A stretch of 64,000 nt of DNA from Methanocaldococcus sp. 16A (GTDB lineage Archaea; AGJL01; Methanococci; Methanococcales; Methanocaldococcaceae), in assembly GCA_049860595.1 (NCBI GenBank), contig CP187551.1; one strand, given 5' to 3'. The notes under the pieces are model-generated. The model saw only the letters and a program-made list of their open reading frames with translations, was not told the origin of the DNA and ran no database searches. Below are positions 7,548 to 36,565 of the stretch, one piece after another. The number at the start of each line of letters is the position of its first letter. Positions within the stretch are counted from its first letter, which is position 1. A program made the position numbers and the translations under genes.

Positions 7548-8706
7548 TTATAAGAAATACAGCGTCTCTGAATTAGAAAAGCTTAGAATGGATGAAGAAA
7601 AATTTTATGAGATGTTTGATAATGCCATATTATTACAAACATGCAATAGGGTAGAGATTATATTTGATGCAAATAGCTTAGAAGAGATTAAAAACATCAA
7701 CTACATAGATTTAGATAAATTTGATATTCTATATGGAGATGAGGCTATTGAACATCTTTTTAGAGTTGCATGTGGTTTAGAGTCAATGATTGTTGGAGAA
7801 AACCAAATACTCGGGCAGTTGAAAAATGCTTATCTAAAAGCAAAAGAGAAAGGAAAAATTTCTAAGAAATTGGAAAAGATTATTTTAAAGGCAATTCATA
7901 CTGGACAGAGAGCGAGAGTAGAGACAAAGATAAATGAAGGAGGAGTTTCAATAGGTAGTGCGGCAGTTGAATTAGCAGAGAAGATTTTTGGATTAGAAGG
8001 GAAAAATGTCTTATTAATTGGAGCTGGAGAGATGGCAAATTTAGTTATAAAAGCGTTGAAGGAAAAAAACATTAAAGCTATTATTGTAGCAAATAGAACT
8101 TATGAAAAAGCTGAAAAATTAGCTAAAGAACTTGGTGGAATGGCTATAAAGTTTGACAAATTGGAAGAAGCTTTGAGGTATGCAGATGTAGTTATCTCAG
8201 CTACTGGAGCCCCACATCCGATTTTAAATAAGGAGAGATTAAAAAACGCTGGAAAGACAGTTATTATAGATATAGCCAACCCAAGAGATACAACCGACGA
8301 TATTAGAGAATTACCTGATGTTTTTTTATTCACTATTGATGATTTGAAGTTGGTTGCTGAAGAGAATTTAAAGAAAAGAAAAGAAGAAATTCCAAAGGTT
8401 GAGATGATTATTTGTGAGGAATTGGAGCAGTTAAAAGAGCTTCTTGATAAAATGAAATTTGAAACAGCAATAAAAGAACTTGGGCTGTATATTGAGAATG
8501 TTAGAAAGAAAGAATTTGAAAAAGCGAAAAAGATATTAAAGAATAAAAATAAGCCGATTGAGGAAGTTTTAGAAGATTTTTCAAAGGCTTTGTGTAAAAG
8601 GATAATTTACGATATAATAAAAATATTTGAAAATGTGGAAGATAAAGAGGTTTTTGAGTGTTTAGCAGAAGAGTTTAAAAAACTTGGAAATAAAAACAAA
8701 AATTAA
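7528..8706 (+). CDS. hemA: Glutamyl-tRNA reductase
   Basis: LQTCNRVE, GLESMIVGENQILGQ, IGAGEMA, ANRT, DIANPRD. Confidence 0.97.
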   Translation: MIILKADYKKYSVSELEKLRMDEEKFYEMFDNAILLQTCNRVEIIFDANSLEEIKNINYIDLDKFDILYGDEAIEHLFRVACGLESMIVGENQILGQLKNAYLKAKEKGKISKKLEKIILKAIHTGQRARVETKINEGGVSIGSAAVELAEKIFGLEGKNVLLIGAGEMANLVIKALKEKNIKAIIVANRTYEKAEKLAKELGGMAIKFDKLEEALRYADVVISATGAPHPILNKERLKNAGKTVIIDIANPRDTTDDIRELPDVFLFTIDDLKLVAEENLKKRKEEIPKVEMIICEELEQLKELLDKMKFETAIKELGLYIENVRKKEFEKAKKILKNKNKPIEEVLEDFSKALCKRIIYDIIKIFENVEDKEVFECLAEEFKKLGNKNKN

Positions 8707-11688: not shown

Positions 11689-12849
11689 TTATTTTTCCCC
11701 TCCTCCATGCTTACTTTTTCTTGGTCTTATTTTTATGATTTTTAGAAATTCTTTTTCATCATCTATAAAGACACATTCTCCTTTATTTAAATCTTTAATA
11801 TACACTTTTAATTCTTTTCCCATATATTCCTGGTTGAGTTTGTTTAATGCATTTATATCTTCTCTATTTGTTACTTTATGTGCAAAAATAATATCACATT
11901 GACTTAAAACCTCATTGTCAATTGCTGAGGGTTGTTGAGTAGCTATAACTAAATTTAATCCTGGCTGTCTTCCTTCCTTTGCCCATCTTATTAATATTTC
12001 TTTTGACAATGTTGATTTTCCAGAAGGAATGAAATTGTGTGCCTCATCAATAAACATCCAAACTTTCGGCATTTTTGATGGTAAATTTAACATTTCCTTT
12101 TTTCTTGATTTCAATCGTTGATTAAATAGATACTTTGCAATTATTGATACAATTAAATCTCTCAATCCGTATCTTCCACTTTCAATAACACTCAAATCAA
12201 TAACATTTATTGCGTTTCTTTCAAAAATTTCTTCTATTGGTATATATTCATCTGAAAAAATACCCCATTTTTTTGCCATATTTAGACGGTTAATTAATGC
12301 TTCTTTTGTGGTTTCTTTTGATTTTGTATCCCTTTCTACTTCATAAATGATATCATCAATTGTAAAAAAATCTTTTTTAATATTATCAATTGCTCTATAT
12401 AATGCGATTCCCATCATTTCATTTATATTCAAATTAAATAGATCACACCATCCTTCTGCTGAAATATCTGATGGATTTAACAAAAGTTTTTTGAATTCTA
12501 CTCCTCTATTTTTCATTTCTCTTATAACATCTTCATCAAATCTTTTGTCTATTTCTCCAGGAACTATCAATTTTACAGGATATCTTTCTGGATATAAATC
12601 CCAATCCCAAAGGTTTTCTTCTTGTTCTTCATTAGGCTCTACCATAGTCCAAAATATCCCCATCGGATCAATTATAATCTTTAAATAATCTGGATGTTTT
12701 TCTTGAATTTCTTCAACTAAAACTCCCAATGTATAGCTTTTTCCACTACCTCTTTTACCACAAATAAAAATTGCATGAGATTTTGAAGCATCTATATAAA
12801 CATCTTCTCCTAACATATCTTTTAGTTTTTCTCTTCCAATAAATAACAT
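11689..12849 (-). CDS. HerA/FtsK-superfamily (DUF87-like) ATPase
   Basis: Walker A GKRGSGKS, IIDPMG, Walker B FIDEAH, KEGRQPG, ATQQPS. Confidence 0.88.
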   Translation of the reverse strand: MLFIGREKLKDMLGEDVYIDASKSHAIFICGKRGSGKSYTLGVLVEEIQEKHPDYLKIIIDPMGIFWTMVEPNEEQEENLWDWDLYPERYPVKLIVPGEIDKRFDEDVIREMKNRGVEFKKLLLNPSDISAEGWCDLFNLNINEMMGIALYRAIDNIKKDFFTIDDIIYEVERDTKSKETTKEALINRLNMAKKWGIFSDEYIPIEEIFERNAINVIDLSVIESGRYGLRDLIVSIIAKYLFNQRLKSRKKEMLNLPSKMPKVWMFIDEAHNFIPSGKSTLSKEILIRWAKEGRQPGLNLVIATQQPSAIDNEVLSQCDIIFAHKVTNREDINALNKLNQEYMGKELKVYIKDLNKGECVFIDDEKEFLKIIKIRPRKSKHGGGEK

Positions 12850-12852
12850 AAT

Positions 12853-13803
12853 CTACCCCTCAATAATAATTAAAGGCACAAAACACTCCTCAAATGATAT
12901 ATTTCCATGAGAACCTTTTTTATATTTTTTTGTAAAATTCCACTTTATACCATGATCAGCTGTAATTACTATAAGATAAGACTGATTTGTTTGATTTAGA
13001 ATATCTATTAAGAGGTTTATATTTTCAAAGATTTCTTTTATTCTATTAATTATTCTTTTTTTACTAACTTCCCTTAATTTATGTGCATCATCATCTAATC
13101 CAATTTTGTAAATTTGAATATATTTTTTTGATAGTTTATTTTTAGATATTATATTATAAATGTCCTCATCATAATGAAAAATGTTCTTTTCACTTATATA
13201 TCTAAATAAAATATCGGTTAATGTATTTTTTCTATTCCAATATGTTTGTCCATATCCTTTATATCCAATCTTATAAAGTTCCTTTGCAATAGGTATGCCA
13301 TTTTTTCCATAAACTATATTTTTAAGCCCATTTTCAGTCGTAGTTTTTCCATTAACAAATATAGGTTCAGCACTATAATTTATGTCTGCATTTATATAAT
13401 CCCAGTAAGATAATCCATCAATAAGATACAATATAACTGTTTTTGGGGTTTTAGTATTAACATAATTAATGATATAATCTTTAACATCTTTTTGTGTTCT
13501 AACATACTTTTCAATTAAATTATATTTTTCATTAATAATTTTATTTAATTCTGGTGTAAAAGGATTATGGTCTATTTCATAAATAGGTAGCCTATAGTCA
13601 AATTTATCAGTTATAACAAATTTTTTTTGAGGAAGTTCTTTATTTGGATTATCAACCATTAACCAAAAATCATTATATGAGATATCTTCAAAATCAAAAA
13701 ATAGAAGAGAAAGTTTATGTTTTATTTTTAAGTAACATGGAGTTTTTATCTTTTTTATTTCTTCCTTACAATTATTTCTACATTCTCCATATTCAATAGA
13801 CAT
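12853..13803 (-). CDS. PglZ-like alkaline-phosphatase-superfamily protein
   Basis: YLIDGLSY, TTTE, LDDDAH, ITADHG, HGNISFEECFVP match the PglZ metal-binding motif series. Confidence 0.8.
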   Translation of the reverse strand: MSIEYGECRNNCKEEIKKIKTPCYLKIKHKLSLLFFDFEDISYNDFWLMVDNPNKELPQKKFVITDKFDYRLPIYEIDHNPFTPELNKIINEKYNLIEKYVRTQKDVKDYIINYVNTKTPKTVILYLIDGLSYWDYINADINYSAEPIFVNGKTTTENGLKNIVYGKNGIPIAKELYKIGYKGYGQTYWNRKNTLTDILFRYISEKNIFHYDEDIYNIISKNKLSKKYIQIYKIGLDDDAHKLREVSKKRIINRIKEIFENINLLIDILNQTNQSYLIVITADHGIKWNFTKKYKKGSHGNISFEECFVPLIIIEG

Positions 13804-16800
13804 TTTAATGTCCCCTCAATAGACATATTTAGATGTTTTGCAATATCTTTAATTGAAATTTCACCATATTTATTCAATAACTCAATTATTTTCATTTCTT
13901 CTTCTTTTAACTTACCAAATCTATTTTTTTCAATAATTTCTCTCTTTATCTCTTTTCTAACTTTATCTAACTCTCCCCATATTTCAAGTATATTAGATTT
14001 TACTTCTTCAATAACATTTACTATATTATCAATATTATCTTTATTTATAACATCAATATCTATGCTATTTAATTTATTTTCTATTTCATTTAGTGTTTTT
14101 AGATAGTTTTCATCATTGTCCAATTTTATTTCTACGTCTGTCTTTAATGATACTATGTAATCATATATTCTGTTTAAAACATCTTGAAGATACGTTCTTA
14201 CATTTCTTACGAGATTTTGATAAGCTATATCTCTATCTTCAATAGTAATTGGTTCTCTGTATGAATATGAAGGGATATCTAACAATTTTAATGTATTGGA
14301 CAAAAAGTTCATTTTTGTTTTGATTTCATCTTGAATCCTATTAAATTCATTTCTTAAATTACTCTCTTTTTTCTTTATGTCTTTTTCGATTAACTCTATA
14401 TCTTTTTCAACATCTTTATCCATGTATAAATAGTTTTCACCATCTCTTGCAAAGTTAGTTATTATTTCATTTATTAATTCGTTAAATCTTTCATACTCTT
14501 CATCAATGTCAATATACTCCTTATAAGCATCTATTTTTTCATATAATTCTTTTAATTTTCTAAGAATAACTAACCAAGATTTAAACTTGTTATATTTCTC
14601 ATTGATATTGACATATTCCTTTTTTAATTCATTCATTTTTTTATTAGCTATTTTTAAAACTTCAGCAAGATTTTCAAGATCTCTTGAAGATGTTATAGTT
14701 TCTCTTAATTCTAATAACTCTTTTGATAGTATATTACATTTCTTTTTTGTTATCTTTATTTGTTCCTCTAAATGTCTAACTATCCCCCCTAACGCATAAT
14801 GTGTCTTTGTAATATCCTCTTTTAAATCTTCTATTTTTCTTTTTAGTTCATTAGTTTTTTCTCCTGTTTTTAAAATTTCATTTAACAATTCTTCCTTATT
14901 TTTAGTTATCTCATTTTTAATTATTTCGTAATATCCTCTTAAAGTTCTCTCCCAACTTTCTAAAAGTTCTAAGTCTTTGTATAATAAATCAGAATTTTTC
15001 TGATTCAGAATCTCTTCTTTTTTAGATAGATTTATAGGAATCTTTGGAATATCCTTTCCATATTTTTTATAGAGATTTACAACATTCCTTGCAAGTTTTT
15101 CAACTTCATCAAATTTATTTAAAACATCAGTATTTGTTATCTCCTCAAGCTTAAATATAAATCCTTTATCGATTTCAATATATCTTCTACTTTCAAGGAT
15201 TTTTAAAATTTCTTTAACTTCATCTTCAGTATATCCTAAAGACATTCCATACTTAATTATTTCATCCATATGTATTGGTTGCGTCCATTTTTCAATAAAT
15301 TCTTTTAATATTTTTTCTTCAAGTGAATGTTTTTTTAATCTAACTATAATTTTATCTTTTTTACCCCACTCTTCTAAGTGTATTAAATCCTTCCATTTTC
15401 CACTTTTACACTCTTCATCGAACCCTGCAACACTTGGATTTTTACTACCAGTTAATTTGGAAACTAAGTCCTTTTTAGTAGTTTCGAATTTGTCACCTCT
15501 TCTCTTTGAGATCGGTAATGATTCTAATAATATTCTATATCTTTCTAAATCTCTTTGCCAGTTTGTAGAATGGATTAAAGTTCTATAATCTTTAAATTTA
15601 TATTCACAAATTCTATTAAATATTTCTTCAACCATCTTTTCTAATCGTGCCTTTAACTCATATTTTTCTGCTAATTCATCTGAGAACAAAAATCTTTTTA
15701 AATATCTTATAAGAAGTGACTTTAATGAATCTATTTCACCCTTATATTTTATGTAATCCCCTTCTTTTTCTTTAATTTTGTCAAGATAATCTAAGAGACA
15801 CAGCATAAACATTGGAGTAACTTCTTGTGGTTTAACATACTGTTGAAGTTTTTTTAACTCACCAGGCAAATTATTCTCTCCAACTCTCTTTAAAACATTA
15901 AATTTAAAGATTACATCTCCATTTTTATAGTCAATTATTAAATCATTATTTTCTATATTTTTATCTAATATAAATTTAAACTCAATATCTGGTGAAATAT
16001 CACCTACTAAATTTTTAATAAACTCCATACCTATTTCTCCAGGTTCTTTCTTTAAAGAATATACACTAACAGTTCTAAATGGATATTTCTTATTAAAAGT
16101 CCCAGTTAATAAATGATAATATCCATAGTTTATAGGATATTTTAAATCGAATCTCCACCCTATAATTTGAGATCCTTTTTTCTTTGGAAAGATTTCAGGT
16201 AATAAATGATTTATAAATGCATTAATCATTTCATCTTCCCAAGATTCATCAAATACATGTCTAAATTTTCTTATGTGTTGTTCTACATAACTACCAGAAC
16301 TTTCGTCTAATAATCCTCTTAATGTATATCCTTCAAGGGCATAAACAATTTCAGTTCCATAATAAGCATCTGAAAGTTCTTCAAACTCATTATATAAGCT
16401 ATACTTTTTTATTAAATCATCAGATACTCCTCTTGGAAATGCTCCCAACAATTTAGTAACTTTTCTTTTTTCTTCAGAATTAACTTTACTTAGAGACAAA
16501 CCTTCATTTAAAGCATCTAAATATTTTTGTTGTATATATGCAATTTTGCCATTTAAGATATCATCAACAAAATCAAATACAGAATAGGGTTCTAATTTTT
16601 CTTTATATTTTGTGCAAGCACATTTAAATGCTCCAATAACTGTCCTTGGACCTTTACCTAAATCATCTCTTGAAGAGATCTCACCAATACTTCTTAAACA
16701 GTCCTTTGTTATAATTTCATAAGGATAAAACCCTAAAAGTTCGCCATATTTGTTCCACAATTTTTCTGCAAAGTCTACATTATATATATTTACTAAATTT

Positions 16801-17594
16801 AAATAGAATCCATCTTTTCGTAATCTATCAATTAAATCTCCAGCTCTTATGCTTAAATCCTCTTCTTGATAATCTGGAATTATAAACAATATCCCCAATC
16901 CTATATTACTAATACTAAGTTCAAAAATAAAATTTCTTAAATCGTTAATAATTTCCATATTGTTTATTCCTTGCACTTCATCTACAAAAATTGCTAATCC
17001 GTCATAATGTTCTTTTATAAGATCATATATTTCCTTTAAAAAATTCATTAGGTCTTTTGGGGTTATTGATATAATTAATTTACCTTTTTCTATGAAACTA
17101 TTAATTATTCTTCTAGCTTCATCTTTTGTTAAGTGTTCTTTTTTTGCTAACTCATCAATCTCTTTTTCTATACTTAATGTTTTATATTTTCTATAAATTT
17201 CTTCAATTTTTTCAACATATTCGGGATATTTATATTTATAAACATACTTTGTCCAACCATAAACTGCATCCATGATTGTATCAAGTTTTCTATCGAACTT
17301 AAATGGGGGAATAGATAATATATTATTATTTTTGCAATATTCCCATAAACTCAGTGCCTTACTTGTCTTTCCATATCCATAAGGAGCAGATATATATCCT
17401 TTAACAGTTTTTCCTTTTTTAATTTCTTTTACAAATCTACGATCAAAGTCTTCATCATCAACTTTTATATATGTTTTTAAATGTTTTTCATAATTATCTG
17501 CAACTAAATCAGGATTGTTTATTAAATTTTCAACTGACTGAGTATCCACTACAGGACTCTTATTTATTATATATTCTAATGCACTAATATCCAT
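13755..17594 (-). CDS. Large AAA+/STAND-type ATPase with coiled coil and terminal HTH (BrxC-like)
   Basis: Walker A APYGYGKT, Walker B IFVDEVQ, LIDRL, GPRTVI; long heptad-rich C-terminal third; HTH-like tail; GGGAGGGT RBS before ATG 17594. Confidence 0.7.
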   Translation of the reverse strand: MDISALEYIINKSPVVDTQSVENLINNPDLVADNYEKHLKTYIKVDDEDFDRRFVKEIKKGKTVKGYISAPYGYGKTSKALSLWEYCKNNNILSIPPFKFDRKLDTIMDAVYGWTKYVYKYKYPEYVEKIEEIYRKYKTLSIEKEIDELAKKEHLTKDEARRIINSFIEKGKLIISITPKDLMNFLKEIYDLIKEHYDGLAIFVDEVQGINNMEIINDLRNFIFELSISNIGLGILFIIPDYQEEDLSIRAGDLIDRLRKDGFYLNLVNIYNVDFAEKLWNKYGELLGFYPYEIITKDCLRSIGEISSRDDLGKGPRTVIGAFKCACTKYKEKLEPYSVFDFVDDILNGKIAYIQQKYLDALNEGLSLSKVNSEEKRKVTKLLGAFPRGVSDDLIKKYSLYNEFEELSDAYYGTEIVYALEGYTLRGLLDESSGSYVEQHIRKFRHVFDESWEDEMINAFINHLLPEIFPKKKGSQIIGWRFDLKYPINYGYYHLLTGTFNKKYPFRTVSVYSLKKEPGEIGMEFIKNLVGDISPDIEFKFILDKNIENNDLIIDYKNGDVIFKFNVLKRVGENNLPGELKKLQQYVKPQEVTPMFMLCLLDYLDKIKEKEGDYIKYKGEIDSLKSLLIRYLKRFLFSDELAEKYELKARLEKMVEEIFNRICEYKFKDYRTLIHSTNWQRDLERYRILLESLPISKRRGDKFETTKKDLVSKLTGSKNPSVAGFDEECKSGKWKDLIHLEEWGKKDKIIVRLKKHSLEEKILKEFIEKWTQPIHMDEIIKYGMSLGYTEDEVKEILKILESRRYIEIDKGFIFKLEEITNTDVLNKFDEVEKLARNVVNLYKKYGKDIPKIPINLSKKEEILNQKNSDLLYKDLELLESWERTLRGYYEIIKNEITKNKEELLNEILKTGEKTNELKRKIEDLKEDITKTHYALGGIVRHLEEQIKITKKKCNILSKELLELRETITSSRDLENLAEVLKIANKKMNELKKEYVNINEKYNKFKSWLVILRKLKELYEKIDAYKEYIDIDEEYERFNELINEIITNFARDGENYLYMDKDVEKDIELIEKDIKKKESNLRNEFNRIQDEIKTKMNFLSNTLKLLDIPSYSYREPITIEDRDIAYQNLVRNVRTYLQDVLNRIYDYIVSLKTDVEIKLDNDENYLKTLNEIENKLNSIDIDVINKDNIDNIVNVIEEVKSNILEIWGELDKVRKEIKREIIEKNRFGKLKEEEMKIIELLNKYGEISIKDIAKHLNMSIEGTLKCLLNMENVEIIVRKK

Positions 17595-18081
17595 ATACCC
17601 TCCCCCTAAAAATTTTCCATAAATCAATATTTGAATTTTGAATACTAACATTTATATTTTTTCCAATAATTGGAGATAAATTATTCAACACTTGTTTCAC
17701 ATCATATAAATCCAATTTTAGCTCCACTCCATAATCTAAAATTTTCTCTTTTGAGATATATATTACTTTTTTTGCTTTTAGAGAGACCATTCTTCTTACT
17801 TCTCTCCAATCATACAATGTTCCATTATCAATAATTACATTTATATTTCTTGCATTATAATTTTTAAATATTTCTTCATTTTCAAAATATACAAAGTTAT
17901 TATTTTTTGCAAATACCCATCCTAAAAATGTCTTTCCTACGCCTTTTTTTCCATAAAGATTAACAACATCATCATAAATAAGAAATTCTTTCAATTTTTT
18001 ATAAGCTTTTTTTTGGTTATGAGTTAGCCAATCATAAGAATAATTAGTTTTGATATAATTTATTAATGAAATATAATCCAT
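17584..18081 (-). CDS. Small P-loop NTPase-fold protein (BrxB position)
   Basis: LYGKKGVGKT Walker A, VIIDN degenerate Walker B; 165 aa; overlaps the large ATPase start. Confidence 0.6.
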   Translation of the reverse strand: MDYISLINYIKTNYSYDWLTHNQKKAYKKLKEFLIYDDVVNLYGKKGVGKTFLGWVFAKNNNFVYFENEEIFKNYNARNINVIIDNGTLYDWREVRRMVSLKAKKVIYISKEKILDYGVELKLDLYDVKQVLNNLSPIIGKNINVSIQNSNIDLWKIFRGRVYGY

Positions 18082-18089
18082 AATCTCCC

Positions 18090-18830
18090 CTATAATATAT
18101 CCTCAAAAGTCCATGTTCTTTTTAATCGTACATACTTTCCAAACATTTTTATTGAAATCTCAACAAAATCATAGATGAAATCAAGATCTTTCAAGAGATT
18201 ATCTAATGCTTTATCTTCAATCAAGCAAAACTTACAGAGTTCTTCAATTTTATTCTCATCTAAAAGCATTAATGAACCGTATTCCTCTCCCCACTGTTTT
18301 TTATATAAGTAATCAATACCCCATAATAATAGATGTAGTTGGCAGTAATCTCTAAGGTTAAACACATTATTTTCATCAATTGGAGATGGATAAAGTGACT
18401 TAATAAAGTTAATTGCTCCACGAACACTATTACTACTAAATGATATACTACCAAATCCTTCATCAAATGCTCTTTCTTTAACTTTTTGTTCAATATCGTT
18501 ATGATTTATTTTTTTACCCATATATTCTTCCCATAATATGTTAATTACACATCTATATGACCATCCTATTGGAGAGGTGGAAGTATAAAGTTTATAGTGA
18601 AGATAATTATTAAACATCTCATCATCCATTTTTAAAATATTTTCAATTTCATTATTATCTTTAACATTTATTAACTTGTTCATAATTGTATAGTTATCAT
18701 CTATTATGCTTGATTTAATTTCCGGAAATATTTTCTTTAATTCAGATTTTTTTAAATTATTCCCATATTCAAGAAATTTTCTTATAATTTCTGGCTTAGC
18801 GTTATGTTGAATATGGAAACTACCTTTCAT
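18090..18830 (-). CDS. Hypothetical protein, possibly BrxA/DUF4007-like DNA-binding component
   Basis: 246-aa ORF with ATGA overlap to the upstream gene; function inferred from size and position only. Confidence 0.4.
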   Translation of the reverse strand: MKGSFHIQHNAKPEIIRKFLEYGNNLKKSELKKIFPEIKSSIIDDNYTIMNKLINVKDNNEIENILKMDDEMFNNYLHYKLYTSTSPIGWSYRCVINILWEEYMGKKINHNDIEQKVKERAFDEGFGSISFSSNSVRGAINFIKSLYPSPIDENNVFNLRDYCQLHLLLWGIDYLYKKQWGEEYGSLMLLDENKIEELCKFCLIEDKALDNLLKDLDFIYDFVEISIKMFGKYVRLKRTWTFEDIL

Positions 18831-19753
18831 TCTTTCACCATTTCATATAGGACAATTATATTATGTAATGATCTATATATTTTAAATTTTCTTAAATTAT
18901 TTAAATTTTTACAAAAGTAACACTCATGACCATTTCTAAGATTTTCAATTAAATAATCATATCCAATATAATTTTTTTGTGAAGTTCTTGGAGATTTGCC
19001 AGTTATATTAATAGTTCGTGAATTGGGAAAATATATATCTCCGAATCCACTTGCCTTATCCCAACTACTACTATCAAAACTATCTACATAATCTTTAATT
19101 TTATTTACAGAACTACCTCCACCAATCCCAAAAGCATGTAATTCAAATCCATAATCTTTTGCTAACATAGATAGATACTTTAAATTTTCCAAACTTTCTT
19201 TAGTTAATCTGTTAATTTGATTATTTTTTCCACAAGTACCAAAACTTCCAAAACCTAATCGTCTAACATTTAAATCTGCATAATTTTTAACACAATAATA
19301 TATCATCTCTTTATTAATTCCCTGAACTACAGGAACAAATTTTTTTTCTAATTTTCCGTTAAACTCTTCAGCAAAACTCTTTGCAAAATAAACTGTCTCA
19401 TAAACTTTTCCCCATGCAGTCTCTACATTATCAGATGAAACTGGTGGAGAATCTGGTAGAACATACCAATCTCCCCATTTATTATTTTCATAAAATTTTC
19501 TCAAAAATGAAAATAGTTGATGTATTTCAAACTTCCCTTGTTGAACATAGTATCCTCCACTATCAAACATAACAGTTGTTTTATATTTTTTCTTTAAATT
19601 TTTAATTTCCTGTATAGTTCCTTCTGATGAAACTATCGGAGTAAAGATTACATTTTCAAATGCCCATTTTTTTGGCTCATGTTTCTTTAAAAGTTCAACC
19701 ATTCTCCTAATCTGACCTGGGGAAATCGTCAATGATGCATAAAATTCCACCAT
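18827..19753 (-). CDS. Stand-alone tRNA-guanine transglycosylase-fold protein (DpdA-like)
   Basis: FDSGGY, VLPD, PVVQG, LGFGS, HAFG, VDSFDSSSW, Zn-site HECYFC...LHN; 308 aa, no PUA domain. Confidence 0.82.
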   Translation of the reverse strand: MVEFYASLTISPGQIRRMVELLKKHEPKKWAFENVIFTPIVSSEGTIQEIKNLKKKYKTTVMFDSGGYYVQQGKFEIHQLFSFLRKFYENNKWGDWYVLPDSPPVSSDNVETAWGKVYETVYFAKSFAEEFNGKLEKKFVPVVQGINKEMIYYCVKNYADLNVRRLGFGSFGTCGKNNQINRLTKESLENLKYLSMLAKDYGFELHAFGIGGGSSVNKIKDYVDSFDSSSWDKASGFGDIYFPNSRTINITGKSPRTSQKNYIGYDYLIENLRNGHECYFCKNLNNLRKFKIYRSLHNIIVLYEMVKE

Positions 19754-19755
19754 TT

Positions 19756-20337
19756 TTACCCCTCTAAATATTTAGCCATTAATACTAAATCCTTATTACC
19801 TCTTGTATGGTTTTTTAAAATACCTTCAATTATAAAACCATTTTTTATAAAAAATCTAAGCCCTCCTTCATTATCTTTAGGAACCTCGGCATATATCTTT
19901 TTCTTTTTTAATTTTTTAGCTTTTTTTTCCAAAAAGTCAATAAAATATATACCAAGAGATTTATTTTTAAATTTTTTATCTATTGCAATATAATTAATTT
20001 TTAGATAATTTGGTTTTTCTCCATAAACTACAACACCAATCAAATCATTTTTATGGAAAATTCCTGCTACATTTATAGTTTTAGAGGTCGTAATCCATTG
20101 CTTTATTGATGATTTATAAACAAAGCCCCAAATATCTGCATAATTTAACAATATCTCTTGAACCCTGTCAACATAATTAACATCATCAATATCTTTAACT
20201 ATAATTTTATTTTTAATTTTTTCTATTTGTTTCGATGACTTTTTGTTTTTATTTTTGTTATTACTTTCAATTAATTCAAATTTTTTATATAAATCATAAA
20301 TTTCAAAGATTATTTTTTGTTGCGTATTCAAGCCCAT
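19756..20337 (-). CDS. GNAT-family N-acetyltransferase
   Basis: IAIDKKFKNKSLG (motif A), NEGGLRFFIKNGF (motif B). Confidence 0.85.
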   Translation of the reverse strand: MGLNTQQKIIFEIYDLYKKFELIESNNKNKNKKSSKQIEKIKNKIIVKDIDDVNYVDRVQEILLNYADIWGFVYKSSIKQWITTSKTINVAGIFHKNDLIGVVVYGEKPNYLKINYIAIDKKFKNKSLGIYFIDFLEKKAKKLKKKKIYAEVPKDNEGGLRFFIKNGFIIEGILKNHTRGNKDLVLMAKYLEG

Positions 20338-20983
20338 ATTTTCTCGCCCCTATTGCATTTATAAATTGTGGATTTTTAGGAATATAAACATCTTTTTCAG
20401 TAATTTCCTTAAAATATTTCACGAATGCCTCATTTTCTGCAACTCCTCCAATCAAGGCAATAGTATCGCATTCAAATGGGTTCATGTTAGCTATTTTCTT
20501 TGCTATAGTGTAATTTACAGATGATATAATATCTCTGATAGTATAGCCATTCACAAGGTAGTTAATTATTTCAGAAATTGAAAAAACAGCACAAGTGTTA
20601 TTTAATTTTAATGGATTTTTTGAGTAATATTTTCCAAAGTTCTCTATAGGAACATCTAAATACATGGCTATAGTTTGCAAAAATAGTCCAGTACCAGCTC
20701 CACATTTATCATTCATTACAAACTCTAATGTTTTTGTATTTATTATCTTTGTATCCTGTCCTCCAACATCAATTATAACATCAACTTCTTTATCAACACC
20801 GTATATAGCAGCAGTAATTTCAGTTATATGATTTCTAAATCTCTTTCTGAAATATCCTGTTGCGAAGACATCTCTATCATTATATTTCTCCAATATCTCG
20901 TTCAATTTAATTATGGAATATTTTTTGAAACCTTGCTCATCTGCAATTTTTATATTTGTTGAACCAACATCAATGCCTATCAT
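20303..20983 (-). CDS. HgdC/BadFG/BcrAD-type ASKHA ATPase activator
   Basis: GIDVGST, ATGY, IDVGGQDTK, MNDKCGAGTG, TCAVFS, GGVAEN, AIGA. Confidence 0.92.
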   Translation of the reverse strand: MIGIDVGSTNIKIADEQGFKKYSIIKLNEILEKYNDRDVFATGYFRKRFRNHITEITAAIYGVDKEVDVIIDVGGQDTKIINTKTLEFVMNDKCGAGTGLFLQTIAMYLDVPIENFGKYYSKNPLKLNNTCAVFSISEIINYLVNGYTIRDIISSVNYTIAKKIANMNPFECDTIALIGGVAENEAFVKYFKEITEKDVYIPKNPQFINAIGARKYGLEYATKNNL

Positions 20984-20985
20984 AA

Positions 20986-21918
20986 CTACCCCAACAACTC
21001 TATAAATGCTTCAATTCTCAGCTTTGTTTGTTCTGGTGTTTTTTGGGGGATGTCCCCCTCTATTGTTAGTATGGGATAATCAATAAATTCCCTAAGAATC
21101 TCATCTTCTAATTTATGATGACAATTCATTTGGGTATAATGAATTACTCCATCAACTTTTCTCTTTTTTAATTCTTTTTTTAGAATTTTTATTCTTTTAG
21201 TTATGTGATTTGCAAAACTGTATGTTGAATAACTATTTACTATACTCTTTATTGAATCTCCTCCCATTCTTACAAATTCATAAGCAAGTTCATTATAAAC
21301 ACAATGTACATTTATTTCATTTAAGTATTCATAAAAATCGCTAAAAATTGGTGGAATTCCTATTATAGCAATCCTATGTCTATATTCAATGTTTTCATCT
21401 TTGTTTAATATGTTATAGATTTCTTTTTTGTATGCATTTAAATCTCCTTTTAAATCACTTGCAGAAATTGTAATATAAAAGGCATCTTTTCCATTTATTT
21501 TGTCTTTATAGCATAATTCATCTACTTTTTTTGCAAGTTTTTTTATTTGATAAACTTCTCTTAAAGTAGTTTTATCAATATTTCCACCCAAAAAATTAAT
21601 AAGTTTTTTTATTTCATTTTCAAAATGTTTTTTATCTCCAAATTGATAAAAGAAATAATGTGTTGGAATTTTTTTCTTTAGTTCTATCTTTTCAGCATCA
21701 ACAAGAGAATTTTGACAATCACCTCCCGCAACAACAATTAATGTATCAATTTTAATTTCATCTTTTAAAATCAATTCTCTCCAAGTTGCAGTCCATGCAC
21801 ATAGTTTATTTTTAGGATAAATTTTCGATTGTGGAACTAAATTATTTAGATCTATAGGAGTATGACCTGCAGAATAAATAATTTCTGGTGGTACTATAGC
21901 AGTAATTCCAACTTTCAT
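20986..21918 (-). CDS. 2-hydroxyacyl-CoA dehydratase/benzoyl-CoA reductase-family Fe-S subunit
   Basis: PEIIYSAG, three spaced Cys (LCAW, GDCQ, NCHH), VDGVIHY, PILTIEGD, LRIEAFIE. Confidence 0.88.
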   Translation of the reverse strand: MKVGITAIVPPEIIYSAGHTPIDLNNLVPQSKIYPKNKLCAWTATWRELILKDEIKIDTLIVVAGGDCQNSLVDAEKIELKKKIPTHYFFYQFGDKKHFENEIKKLINFLGGNIDKTTLREVYQIKKLAKKVDELCYKDKINGKDAFYITISASDLKGDLNAYKKEIYNILNKDENIEYRHRIAIIGIPPIFSDFYEYLNEINVHCVYNELAYEFVRMGGDSIKSIVNSYSTYSFANHITKRIKILKKELKKRKVDGVIHYTQMNCHHKLEDEILREFIDYPILTIEGDIPQKTPEQTKLRIEAFIELLG

Positions 21919-21998
21919 AAATGCACACCTACTAAAAAATATAATATAAGATAATAATGATAAAAAAATTGACTAATTAAAATAAAAATTTTTTTAAG

Positions 21999-23009
21999 TT
22001 ATTTCTTCCTCTTCCACATCCTTGGATAAGTTCCTCTATCCATATAAACCCTCTCAACATCAACGGCTACACCTTTATCTGCATTTAAAATCTCTTTTGT
22101 GTTCATTAAAGCTTTTCCTACACCAATAGCTTCTCCTTTCAATGTCTCAACTAAAACTGTCTCTCCCTTCCCAATACCTTTACTCAATTTGGCTATTCCT
22201 CTAACATAAACATCTGCTCCATGGCAAATAGCATCAACTGCTGAATCTTTAACAACTACCTTCTTTAAATGCCTCAATCCATATTCCATTGGTTTTATTA
22301 TTCTTCTTAGCTCTTCTTCATCTCCATCCTCTTTCCAAAAATGATAAGCATCAAGTAAATCTTGCAAATATACTGCATCTTTCTCTTCAAAACATCCACT
22401 TTTAACTCTTCTTAGCTCTTGCATATGAGCTGAGGTTCCTAAAGCTTCACCTAAATCTTCACATAGCTTTCTTATATAAGTCCCAGATTGACACTTAACC
22501 CTAAACAAAACATCTTTTCCATCTTTATCTAAAAGCTCTAACTCATGAATTTTCCTTATTCTCAATCTTCTTTTAACAGCTGCTTTTAATGGAGGTCTTT
22601 GGTAAATTCTTCCAGTAAATTCTTTAAAAACTCTCAATATATCTTCTTCAGAGGCATCTCTATGTAGATGCATTAGGCAAATATATTCTTTAGGTGGAAT
22701 ATGCCACATAGGAATTGTTTTTGTAGCTCTCTCTAAAGCTACTGGTAAAACACCAGTAACCTTTGGGTCTAATGTCCCACCATGTCCAGCTTTATCTAAG
22801 TTTAAAATTTTTTTAACCCATGTTGAAACCTCATGGGATGTAGGACCTCTTGGTTTATCAATTACAACAACACCATATTTTATTAAATCCTCTATCTTTC
22901 TTTCATAAGGGTTACAACCATAATCCCAGTTAGTTTCAGCATCTTCTTTAACTATAATCTCTTCTTTATCCTTTATCTTTTTTTCTTGAAATTTTTCCAA
23001 TAAAATCAC
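21999..23009 (-). CDS. cbf5: H/ACA RNA-guided / tRNA Psi55 pseudouridine synthase Cbf5
   Basis: DKPRGPTSHEV, GHGGTLDPKVTG, GTYIRKLC, C-terminal PUA. Confidence 0.96.
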   Translation of the reverse strand: MILLEKFQEKKIKDKEEIIVKEDAETNWDYGCNPYERKIEDLIKYGVVVIDKPRGPTSHEVSTWVKKILNLDKAGHGGTLDPKVTGVLPVALERATKTIPMWHIPPKEYICLMHLHRDASEEDILRVFKEFTGRIYQRPPLKAAVKRRLRIRKIHELELLDKDGKDVLFRVKCQSGTYIRKLCEDLGEALGTSAHMQELRRVKSGCFEEKDAVYLQDLLDAYHFWKEDGDEEELRRIIKPMEYGLRHLKKVVVKDSAVDAICHGADVYVRGIAKLSKGIGKGETVLVETLKGEAIGVGKALMNTKEILNADKGVAVDVERVYMDRGTYPRMWKRKK

Positions 23010-23185
23010 CTTTTTTCATAATCTTTAATAGCTTTAAAAAATCTAACAAATGCACAAAAAATGCCAAACAATAAAAAGACAACTATCCACAAATTATTAT
23101 CTGTATATTCTGCTATGATATAACCAATAAAAATACCTAAGGCAATCATTATAAAGAATTCAAATGCAATATCTCTAAGATACAT
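23006..23185 (-). CDS. 59-aa two-TM membrane protein (AtpZ/AtpI-like), absent from the ORF track
   Basis: Manual translation MYLRDIAFEFFIMIALGIFIGYIIAEYTDNNLWIVVFLLFGIFCAFVRFFKAIKDYEKR*; stop overlaps the cbf5 GTG start. Confidence 0.7.
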   Translation of the reverse strand: MYLRDIAFEFFIMIALGIFIGYIIAEYTDNNLWIVVFLLFGIFCAFVRFFKAIKDYEKR

Positions 23186-23273
23186 AACATTACCTTATTT
23201 TATAATATTATTCACTATATTCTATACTTAACCACCATAACTTATTTTCAATAAAATATAAATTTTTGACTAT

Positions 23274-23792
23274 ATGAGGGATAGCATGGACAAAGAGCTT
23301 TTGCATAAAAAAATAAGGAAAGATATTAAAGATTTAATAAATAATAATCCCCCAGAGAGAACATTGGGAAATCTAATACCATTATCTATATTTCAGGCAG
23401 TGAGAATAGGAGTTTTAACTGCTGGCTGTGGAATTGAGGCAATAATTTACAATATTGGAAAAGATATTGGTAGGGAAGTAATTTCTATGTGTGTTGATGA
23501 ATCTAACTTACTTAAAAGCTTTGCAGAAATATTAAAGAAGTCAAAAATTGGCATCTTAGAAGTAAAAAAAGTTGAAGATGATGAGATGGTTTTAGTTTTA
23601 AAAGATTGTATCTCTTGCCATAATGTTCCAAATGTTGGCACAACTCTATGCCATTTTGAAGCGGGATTAATAGCAGGAACTTTAGAAAAAAAGCTGAGAA
23701 GGAAAGTTAATGCTGTTGAAGTAAAATGCTGTGGTAAGGGGGATGAATACTGTGAATTTTTGGTAAAGATTGGAGATAGATTGTATTGGTGA
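23274..23792 (+). CDS. V4R (4-vinyl reductase) ligand-binding domain protein
   Basis: YNIGKDIG, DCISC, LCHFEAGLIAG, EVKCCGKGDEYCEF. Confidence 0.88.
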   Translation: MRDSMDKELLHKKIRKDIKDLINNNPPERTLGNLIPLSIFQAVRIGVLTAGCGIEAIIYNIGKDIGREVISMCVDESNLLKSFAEILKKSKIGILEVKKVEDDEMVLVLKDCISCHNVPNVGTTLCHFEAGLIAGTLEKKLRRKVNAVEVKCCGKGDEYCEFLVKIGDRLYW

Positions 23793-23796
23793 TTAA

Positions 23797-24243
23797 ATGA
23801 TTGACAGGATTGATTTAAAAATTCTAAGAATTTTAAATGAAAATGCCAGAAAATCATTTAGAGAGATTGGAAGAGAATTGGGAATTAGTGAGGGAACTGT
23901 AAGAAATAGAGTAAAAAAAATGATTGATAAAGGTATTATAACAGGTTTTCATGCATCCATAAATCCAAAAAATTTGGGGTTTGAAGTTATAGCTATTTTG
24001 GGTTTATATATAAAGCCATCCAAAGTTGAAGAAACGCTCAATAAATTAAAAGAACTTAATGAGATTGTAGGGCTTTATCAAACTACTGGGGAATATGACG
24101 CTGTTTGTATAGCAATTTTAAAGGATATGGAAAGTTTAGGGAACTTTTTGGCAGAAAAAATATATCCATTAGTTAATGTTAATGGATGTAAAGTAACTCT
24201 CGTTTTAAGAACATTTAAAGATGGTAGTAAGATGCCAATATAA
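23797..24243 (+). CDS. ptr1: Lrp/AsnC transcription regulator (Ptr1-like)
   Basis: DRIDLKILRIL..NARKSFREI HTH, TTGEYD RAM domain; Ptr1 identity from recalled synteny. Confidence 0.8.
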   Translation: MIDRIDLKILRILNENARKSFREIGRELGISEGTVRNRVKKMIDKGIITGFHASINPKNLGFEVIAILGLYIKPSKVEETLNKLKELNEIVGLYQTTGEYDAVCIAILKDMESLGNFLAEKIYPLVNVNGCKVTLVLRTFKDGSKMPI

Positions 24244-31844: not shown

Positions 31845-34850
<3,006 letters not shown>

Positions 34851-34947
34851 ATCCAGATTTCACCGGGATGTGGAAGCCTATGCATGGCCCTCATGTTTTT
34901 CAGGCCCTTCACCTGCAACTCTTTAGAGTTGCAGGCTGCATATATAG

Positions 34948-35020
34948 TGGACCCGGTGGGATTTGAACCCACGGCCTCCGGCTTGCAAGGCCGGCGCTCT
35001 CCCAGCTGAGCTACGGGCCC
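34948..35020 (-). tRNA. tRNA-Ala(UGC), CCA not encoded
   Basis: GGGCCCGTAGCTCAG...CTTGCAA...GGTTCAAATCC...GGTCCA cloverleaf in the 16S-23S spacer. Confidence 0.97.
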
Positions 35021-35084
35021 ACTTTCCCTATGAGGCAAGCCCACGACTGGTTTGGTGCCCCGCAGCAACCAGCACTTTTTTCTC

Positions 35085-36565
<1,481 letters not shown>

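Follow-up and report, generated by a model that had tools for sequence, protein, structure and literature searches.

Why should the two components of an ATP-dependent Fe-S reductase be encoded in one row with an acyltransferase and a transglycosylase of the TGT type? The question is raised by a 64,000-nucleotide stretch of DNA from Methanocaldococcus sp. 16A (contig CP187551.1, here called the window; the source is a 1.62 Mb Methanococcales genome of low G+C content), in which an HGD-D-like gene and an activase gene, hereafter the pair, are followed by genes for a GNAT and a TGT-like protein. The original prediction held that the pair reduces the nitrile of preQ0 (7-cyano-7-deazaguanine) to the amine of preQ1 (7-aminomethyl-7-deazaguanine) independently of QueF and that the GNAT acetylates this amine for a mark in DNA, or else that the pair is a metabolic passenger. 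We are highly confident that the pair belongs to 7-deazaguanine metabolism. It is probably an ATP-driven Fe-S reductase of preQ0 acting within a BREX-Related Capture (BRC) system, i.e. an analogue and non-homologous replacement of QueF. The fuller proposal, which we put forward tentatively, is that this is the first QueF-independent preQ0 reductase, that it fills the QueF gap of the queuosine pathway and that it was captured by BRC for an N-acyl-preQ1 mark in DNA.

The four genes in question are as follows (aa, amino acids; nt, nucleotides):

20986-21918, minus strand: HGD-D-like protein, 310 aa; proposed Fe-S catalytic subunit of the preQ0 reductase
20303-20983, minus strand: compact, ATP-dependent activase of the HgdC/BadF type, 226 aa; 2-nt gap after the HGD-D-like gene
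19756-20337, minus strand: GNAT acyltransferase (193 aa) whose N-terminal extension is rich in Lys; the gene overlaps that of the activase by 35 nt
18827-19753, minus strand: TGT-like transglycosylase, 308 aa; 2-nt gap after the GNAT gene; proposed DNA 7-deazaguanine insertase

They head a row of nine minus-strand open reading frames (ORFs; 11689-21918) spaced by overlaps or gaps of a few bases, and both the coordinates and the family assignments agree with the earlier description of the four as one unit. All nine genes are colinear in five of 40 Methanococcales genomes (G000, G003, G007, G010 and G036), and full-length close copies of the HGD-D-like protein (77-95% identity) as well as copies of the TGT-like protein are found in the identical set of five. 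The order HGD-D-like, activase, GNAT, TGT-like is repeated in metagenome contigs L109, L110, L111, L113 and L114, of which L114 alone is long enough for all nine genes. The joining of the reductase pair, the GNAT and the TGT-like gene in one unit exceeds a chance association.

At E <= 1e-5, 235 proteins of about 310 residues make up the subfamily of the HGD-D-like protein; their named sources are Methanoperedens, ANME-2, Methanosarcinales and Thermoplasmata. We followed the phyletic pattern of this subfamily through 401 genomes from a single archaeal phylum. Eight of them matched its profile (E <= 1e-40), and QueA was present in exactly those eight, five of which came from the even sample and three of which were reached through the pair itself. 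QueF-family proteins occurred in 33 of the 401 genomes and in none of the eight. A set of five pair-bearing archaeal genomes gave the same picture (QueA 5/5, QueF 0/5, QueH 4/5), and so did a distant bacterial clade of the subfamily (30-38% identity), for which eight genomes from Planctomycetota, Chloroflexota, Bacillota, Vulcanimicrobiota, WOR-3 and one unclassified bacterium all carried QueA and all lacked QueF. The reaction of QueF is the sole step of the queuosine pathway that we did not find in pair-bearing genomes. We considered the other steps of the pathway as well. A replacement of QueD was rejected because QueD is present in all 20 pair-bearing genomes, and a replacement of QueC because QueC is found in G000 (which also has QueD and ArcTGT and lacks QueF) and in the bacterial locus L106 described below. 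QueH was rejected on account of its presence in four of the five archaeal genomes and the absence of QueA from the BRC hosts.

The remaining thirty archaeal QueF-family matches fall outside the genomes with QueA, the pair or the BRC TGT-like gene (e.g. G159, G146, G273 and G244). Most score 57-97 bits, two score about 25 bits, which is below the cut-off, and the ORFs are mostly some 250 aa long; their products may be archaeosine enzymes of a QueF-like kind.

Gene order points to the same pathway. A compact activase gene lies 3' of the HGD-D-like gene in 60 of 80 genomic loci of the subfamily, whereas the BRC cassette accompanies it in just three, two from Methanococcales and one from Methanosarcina sp. 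UBA7. Elsewhere the neighbours include the position-34 Tgt of the queuosine pathway (11/80 loci; PF01702 464 bits and TIGR00430 442 bits, the latter above cut-off), QueA (8/80) and QueH (5/80). The Tgt and QueA genes stand close upstream on the opposite strand and are mostly directly adjacent to the pair in ANME-2, Methanocellales and Thermoplasmata. In 19 loci a gene for a GTP cyclohydrolase is found upstream of the pair. Its assignment as FolE2 in Methanoperedens was rejected, as the best family is MptA (TIGR00294, 461 bits), an enzyme of methanopterin synthesis. Two Thermoplasmata loci (L070 and L072) have no adjacent compact activase gene; there, ORFs of 757-760 aa and 320-328 aa follow the HGD-D-like gene and may encode an activase that is fused or of another kind.

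A complete operon was found in locus L106 of a WOR-3 bacterium, where six plus-strand ORFs overlap or abut in the order QueD (TIGR03367, 100 bits against a cut-off of 89), QueE-like, FolE2 (265 against 215), HGD-D-like, activase (TIGR00241, 160 against 125) and QueC (199 against 150). The best families of the radical-SAM protein in second place are all QueE, with scores under their cut-offs. To judge from these family scores, the row encodes every step up to preQ0 together with the pair, and the genome has QueA and lacks QueF.

The BRC loci themselves provide a further comparison. Among the 401 archaeal genomes, a profile of the BRC TGT-like protein matched three (G210, G284 and G349), each without the pair and without QueA, and in all three a QueF gene lies inside the BRC locus. 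The QueF gene of G349 and G284 encodes a 142-aa protein and shares 4 nt with the TGT-like gene, and that of G210 is located just beyond a GNAT gene that is itself 3' of HerA. The QueF encoded within BRC loci is of the unimodular QueF-II type (TIGR03139, 146 and 149 bits, the former for G349); the G210 protein scores 80 bits, just under the cut-off. In the metagenome locus L167 QueF likewise abuts the TGT-like gene, and in L182 a queuosine-precursor transporter follows HerA. These two genes, one QueF and one transporter, were the yield of a scan of 119 of 126 candidate ORFs flanking BRC loci (68 + 51); the seven left out were four HGD-D or activase ORFs of L063 and L115, two that had been scanned earlier and one identical duplicate. 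Conversely, six pair-bearing BRC hosts, including G000, have neither QueA (0/6) nor QueF (0/6). With QueF in three and the pair in six, all nine archaeal whole-genome BRC loci examined thus contain a candidate preQ0 reductase, and since the six hosts lack QueA, they have no tRNA queuosine pathway in which the pair could be used.

A second, divergent QueF paralogue (66 bits) is encoded in G349 about 700 nt from the QueF gene that overlaps the TGT-like gene (L192:16729-17136, plus strand).

In a tree of the subfamily (a quick tree of 79 rows with several long branches), the BRC-linked copies occupy two places parted by a branch labelled 98*. One is the Methanococcales group and the other holds the Methanosarcina-type loci L063 and L115, which are nested among sequences with a queuosine context. 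The gene order also differs between the two lineages, with the pair before the GNAT gene in one and after HerA in the other. The tree and the gene orders indicate that the pair joined BRC at least twice.

Both the link to deazaguanine genes and the anti-correlation with queF that had been predicted were found, and in three settings: the archaeal queuosine pathway (QueA in 8/8 and QueF in 0/8), the bacterial preQ operon of L106 together with the eight bacterial genomes (8/8 and 0/8) and the BRC loci in which QueF occupies the place of the pair. A QueF-independent nitrile reductase is the best-supported reading of the pair, the support coming from comparative genomics only.

The frame in which the pair is found in the window is a known one. 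The six downstream genes together with the GNAT and the TGT match the BRC system published in Nucleic Acids Res 2026 (gkag035, PMC12839542). Below the TGT-like gene the row continues with:

18090-18830, minus strand: p246, a BRC component overlapping the TGT-like gene by 4 nt; DUF4007/BrxA-like according to the published description
17584-18081, minus strand: p165, a small P-loop NTPase with weak nSTAND3 and AAA_24 matches (E 0.005-0.008); STAND/BrxB-like in the same source
13755-17651, minus strand: 1298-aa protein with PCI and C-terminal HTH_24 matches only; BrxC-like/DUF6079 in the same source
12853-13803, minus strand: PglZ-like protein of the alkaline-phosphatase fold, 316 aa, with a weak PF01663 match (E 0.003)
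11689-12849, minus strand: HerA/FtsK-type translocase, 386 aa (DUF87 E 4.7e-14; PADLOC HerA E 6e-28 and mad8 E 4.8e-25)

According to gkag035, BRC consists of seven parts (PglZ, DUF6079, STAND NTPase, DUF4007, HerA, GNAT and TGT), is reported from 45 taxa and always includes HerA/FtsK. The likeness of the window to that description lies in the parts and their order: GNAT, TGT, DUF4007-like protein, STAND NTPase, BrxC-like protein, PglZ and HerA. The window contains the HerA/FtsK translocase and the modification module of GNAT and TGT, and its p246, p165, 1298-aa and PglZ-like proteins are colinear and tblastn-homologous with the six-gene core. A Pfam search of the window proteins at E <= 0.01 gave no match to DUF4007, DUF6079 or PglZ, but the weak nSTAND3 and Phosphodiest matches alone, and PADLOC gave none for the HGD-D-like protein, activase, GNAT, TGT-like protein, p246, p165 or PglZ-like protein. 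p246 has no Pfam match in the window; its homologue L160:1969-2808 contains a winged helix-turn-helix (HTH).

We assembled 81 loci of the TGT-like gene (80 from metagenomes and one from Methanosarcina) and found a conserved row headed by this gene, with p246-like, small P-loop, ~1300-aa, PglZ-like and HerA proteins. p246 follows the TGT-like gene in 59 of the 81, p165 and the 1298-aa protein are present in 37 each and the PglZ-like protein in 30; HerA identity across the BRC loci outside Methanococcales is 47-58%. In gkag035 the mark is suggested to be possibly dPreQ0 alone and the substrate of the GNAT is left open, whereas the archaeal BRC loci described here add a candidate preQ0 reductase, either the pair or QueF. 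The words dehydratase, BadF, activase, hydroxyglutaryl, QueF and Methanocaldococcus do not occur in the main text of that paper. The BRC frame is thus known, and what is new is the role of the pair and the preQ1 reading of BRC.

Several loci depart from this layout. A large protein of up to 983 aa is encoded immediately 5' of the GNAT or TGT-like gene in L149 (244-3195) and 22 other BRC loci, many of them bacterial, and carries domains such as five RNA-polymerase alpha-CTD repeats, sigma-70 region 4 and HARE-HTH. Accessory genes inside or beside BRC in L132, L133, L162, L142 and L159 encode Mrr_N, a PIN nuclease, DUF3800 and an SNF2-type helicase, and L165 and L173 have a PD-(D/E)XK nuclease and a ClpB-like ATPase instead of the usual BRC core. 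In L112 a TGT-like gene (7789-8697) whose product is 74% identical to that of the window stands apart from other BRC genes, between genes for proteins of 691 and 659 aa, family unknown.

What kind of chemistry can be expected of the pair? The only Pfam family of the HGD-D-like protein is HGD-D (PF06050, 111.7 bits, cut-off 28.4, with residues 8-309 aligning to positions 3-342 of the profile), and it does not belong to the QueF family (PF14489). Its predicted structure (mean predicted local distance difference test score, pLDDT, 95.5) was matched by Foldseek with a probability of 1.00 and a query-normalised TM-score (TMq) of 0.67-0.80 to HadB/C, BzdN/O, MbdO/N and DCCP, and its nearest PDB sequences are DCCP, the beta subunit of 2-hydroxyisocaproyl-CoA dehydratase and BzdN. 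Residues T6, P10, E12, D23, N25, N26, C40, C68 and C266 are invariant in 22 aligned sequences. The first six of these bear out the N-terminal motif that had been noticed in the window sequence, which is real and subfamily-wide, and C40, C68 and C266 are the cysteines capable of holding an Fe-S cluster; three such residues would fit a [4Fe-4S] cluster with one open iron. The activase belongs to TIGR00241 (132.6 bits against 125.4) and PF01869 (85.5 bits against 31.5), and its N-terminal domain is shortened. Across 60 aligned partners, G3, D5, G7, S8, D72, G74, G75, Q76, D77, T78, K79, C94, C131, G179 and G180 are conserved in at least 95%, which we take to be the ATP-binding motifs and the two cluster-bridging cysteines. 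An activase with an HGD-D partner is a textbook pair, in which the HGD-D-family protein receives a low-potential electron from the ATP-hydrolysing activase.

DCCP reduces small unsaturated molecules. With its reductase DCCP-R (6eno, 7yyl, 7yzm), it gives the best PDB sequence match of the HGD-D-like protein (E 4.2e-14) and a TMq of 0.74-0.79, and it is also alike in having a single type of catalytic subunit and an ATP-dependent reductase. However, the HGD-D-like protein falls short of DCCP by about 110 residues, has three invariant cysteines and scores 44.6 bits against a cut-off of 350 with the double_cubane family NF040772, the match being limited to residues 113-309, so that it is not a member of that family. 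HadBC, HgdAB, BzdNO and MbdON share the superfamily, the fold (3o3m, TMq 0.72-0.79; 8s02_B, 0.80) and the kind of activase, but they combine two distinct HGD-D-type subunits, and their substrates are CoA thioesters. The window locus has one HGD-D gene, 13-20% identity to those proteins and no neighbours from CoA metabolism. In the scanned stretch (11689-24243) the neighbours are the BRC genes and, upstream of the unit, Cbf5, a V4R protein and an Lrp regulator, and the Pfam scan of this stretch bore out the earlier remark that no CoA-transferase or acyl-CoA dehydrogenase gene is nearby. The other HGD-D gene of the genome, a much more canonical one (408 bits; G000:C1:241147-242160), forms a separate locus about 130 kb away. 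A second activase gene lies at G000:C1:229889-230608 and one for a methanogenesis-marker-15-like activase at G000:C1:867969-868730.

QueF and the pair have no relation in sequence or fold, and the analogy claimed is a functional one: they would share the reaction, the position in the pathway and the slot beside the BRC TGT-like gene. QueF is described as a T-fold enzyme that uses NADPH and forms a covalent thioimide. The pair, in contrast, is of the HgdB/HgdC Fe-S type and, by family, should need ATP and a low-potential donor. We propose that the host supplies preQ0, which would be made for archaeosine (QueC, QueD and ArcTGT are present; QueF and QueA are not), and that its nitrile would bind at or near the open iron of the HGD-D-like cluster. 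Four ATP-gated one-electron steps would then take the nitrile through the imine to the aminomethyl group of preQ1. We infer both this substrate and the four-electron nitrile chemistry. The GNAT would acylate the primary amine of preQ1 before or after insertion, the TGT-like protein would swap guanine in DNA for the modified base, DNA being the presumed target, and the resulting mark would serve as a self label for the restriction part made up of the BrxC-like, PglZ-like and HerA proteins.

A number of observations weigh against this proposal. The HGD-D-like protein has just three invariant cysteines and no recognisable base-binding motif, and we found no precedent in the literature for a four-electron nitrile reduction in the HGD-D/activase family. 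The evidence is association throughout, and as the relatives are not independent of each other the counts are patterns rather than statistics; many of the searched genomes are moreover incomplete metagenome-assembled genomes, which makes any single QueF absence soft. The MptA-type gene is weak evidence, a small reverse-strand ORF intervening in most of the 19 loci. The GNAT of the window has no tblastn-detectable similarity to the GNATs of other BRC loci. Finally, most metagenomic BRC loci, apparently bacterial, have neither the pair nor QueF. Their hosts may rely on a housekeeping QueF or on preQ0, and preQ0 may be what BRC uses in many hosts, in line with the suggestion of its describers.

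If the pair does act in this pathway, it could still act on a different form of the substrate or at a different step. The phyletic and gene-order evidence applies equally to free preQ0 and to preQ0 already inserted in nucleic acid, which would be DNA here and tRNA in the queuosine archaea. Reduction in the polymer would suit the dPreQ0 expected by the BRC describers (gkag035) and the report that the DpdAs characterised before the phage study all insert preQ0 into DNA (PMC10516641). We nevertheless consider it unlikely, as the HGD-D-like protein (310 aa) consists of one HGD-D domain and carries no nucleic-acid-binding domain besides it, the pair in L106 sits inside an operon for free-base biosynthesis and the alternative enzyme inside BRC loci is a unimodular QueF-II. 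Enzymes of the latter type act on free preQ0 in bacteria. As for a different step, the association with queuosine genes identifies the pathway but leaves the step within it undefined, and the reduction of an epoxide to an alkene, as performed on epoxyqueuosine by QueG or QueH, would suit a low-potential reductase. Yet QueH is present in four of the five archaeal pair genomes, the six BRC hosts without QueA cannot have epoxyqueuosine, and the gene that substitutes for the pair in BRC loci is QueF. A step before preQ0 fares no better, with QueD in 20/20 genomes and QueC both in G000 and beside the pair in L106. A role at another step is very unlikely.

It is also distinctly unlikely that we are dealing with some unrelated anaerobic reductase or dehydratase, a passenger or a regulatory module linked to these genes by ancestry or chance, although the best-known reactions of the family are those of acyl-CoA compounds. 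In many of the 80 loci all neighbours are housekeeping genes, 37 of the 79 tree rows have no deazaguanine neighbour in the available stretch, and in the WOR-3 phylum sample the subfamily is found in one of 79 genomes, the starting genome itself, so that no statistics are possible there. Such an explanation, however, needs a coincidence to account for QueA in eight of eight and QueF in none of eight genomes, both in the archaeal sample of 401 and in the bacterial clade, and another for the L106 operon, the exchange with QueF in BRC and the two recruitments by BRC, and the scanned window locus has no gene for a CoA-transferase or acyl-CoA dehydrogenase to go with it. The passenger alternative of the original prediction finds no support: cassette and pair are conserved together, BRC recruited the pair at least twice, and six hosts without QueA keep it.

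The last two parts of the module are the TGT-like protein and the GNAT. The TGT-like protein scores below the PF01702 cut-off (E 0.0022), and in PDB profile searches it matches DpdA (7ui4, E 0.0021) and ArcTGT (1iq8, E 0.022). Its family (248 proteins at E <= 0.001) retains in alignment A2 the motifs FDSGG, GFGSF, FDS..W and H-x-C-x-x-C...H, which presumably correspond to the TGT catalytic residues; FDSGG, FDS..W and the zinc-type motif (H276-x-C278-x-x-C281...H297) are invariant. Foldseek placed its model (pLDDT 88.6) at a TMq of 0.63-0.70 to bacterial TGT, ArcTGT and DpdA (0.64-0.70 for the Z. mobilis TGT and 0.67 for DpdA). The family alignment and the predicted fold indicate that it is a TGT-fold protein. 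It matches no NCBIfam family at E <= 0.01, including the DpdA model NF041059, and is not a member of the latter.

The GNAT (PF00583 E 8e-8; PF13420 E 1.9e-5) is a general part of BRC and a partner of the TGT-like protein, mostly in loci without the reductase pair. GNAT Pfam domains are carried by nine of 120 TGT-like homologues, among the matches listed, and a long TGT-like ORF of the size of such a fusion (457-527 aa) is found in 20 BRC loci; in 21 loci a standalone GNAT gene lies before the TGT-like gene or after HerA. The fusions suggest that GNAT and TGT are functionally coupled. Here the original prediction has to be divided: we retain the acylation of the preQ1 amine as an inference, but not the tie of the GNAT to the reductase pair, since GNAT and TGT occur together in BRC mostly without it. 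That the GNAT acylates preQ1 seems to us nearly an even question. It may instead leave the base untouched and acetylate a protein of the system or of the invader, or act as a toxin or regulator, in which case the mark would be plain dPreQ1 or dPreQ0; GNATs are versatile, the best NCBIfam matches of this one are weak and varied (RimI, PaiA, PseH) and gkag035 leaves its substrate open. We hold this alternative to be a serious one, if somewhat doubtful. Against it, the fusions and the constant position of the GNAT gene, next to the TGT-like gene or 3' of HerA, point to a substrate path common to both enzymes. BRC loci also recruit genes that would make preQ1, which is an acylable primary amine, and phages methylate and formylate the same amine (PMC10516641).

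The insertion of 7-deazaguanines into DNA by a TGT-family enzyme is known from the Dpd and phage DpdA pathways, which give dPreQ0, dADG, dPreQ1, mdPreQ1 and fdPreQ1. Unlike those, the window has neither DpdB nor DpdC, and its TGT-like protein does not match NF041059. According to PMC10516641, QueF-bearing phages contain dPreQ1, the amine of which is methylated by DpdM or formylated by DpdN, and one phage DpdA2 puts about 5 times more preQ1 than preQ0 into DNA; the word 'Acetyl' does not occur in the paper. A Protein Science review of November 2026 describes QueF as the only enzyme family known for the direct reduction of a nitrile to an amine. A 2021 paper lists Tgt, QueA and QueH in 34 archaeal genomes and never mentions QueF. 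In the full-text literature, with most subscription journals outside its coverage, we found no link of the HGD-D/activase family to queuosine or preQ0. If correct, preQ0 reduction by the pair would represent a second, mechanistically unrelated route from nitrile to amine, of interest to enzymology and biocatalysis, and would close the QueF hole in the archaeal queuosine pathway. The BRC mark would then be predicted to be derived from preQ1 rather than to be dPreQ0, and N-acyl-preQ1 would be a base so far unreported from DNA. For dPreQ1 PMC10516641 gives an [M+H]+ of 296.1, so that a form heavier by 42 Da would be expected near 338.1.

The cassette is a mobile unit, and its named carriers include the cultivable strains Methanocaldococcus indicus SL43 and Methanothermococcus sp. 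Ax23. It adjoins the Cbf5 gene in three genomes, and two more genomes have an N-terminal remnant of the HGD-D-like gene beside Cbf5: in G004 (L027, about 8450-8625) it covers residues 9-65 and contains an in-frame TGA, and in G038 (L028, 10906-11091) it covers residues 1-62 at the contig end. The site on the Cbf5 side looks like a recurrent point of insertion or decay. In the Methanothermococcus genome G036 an insert of about 4.4 kb with four ORFs (749, 215, 195 and 290 aa) separates p246 from p165 (L026, 7476-11883), and L030 shows the same.

A scan of the window for promoters and terminators returned 92 sites against 91.2 expected and is uninformative for an archaeon. The G+C content of positions 32001-36000 is 0.63 compared with about 0.29 elsewhere in the window, and this segment is probably the rRNA operon of a hyperthermophile.

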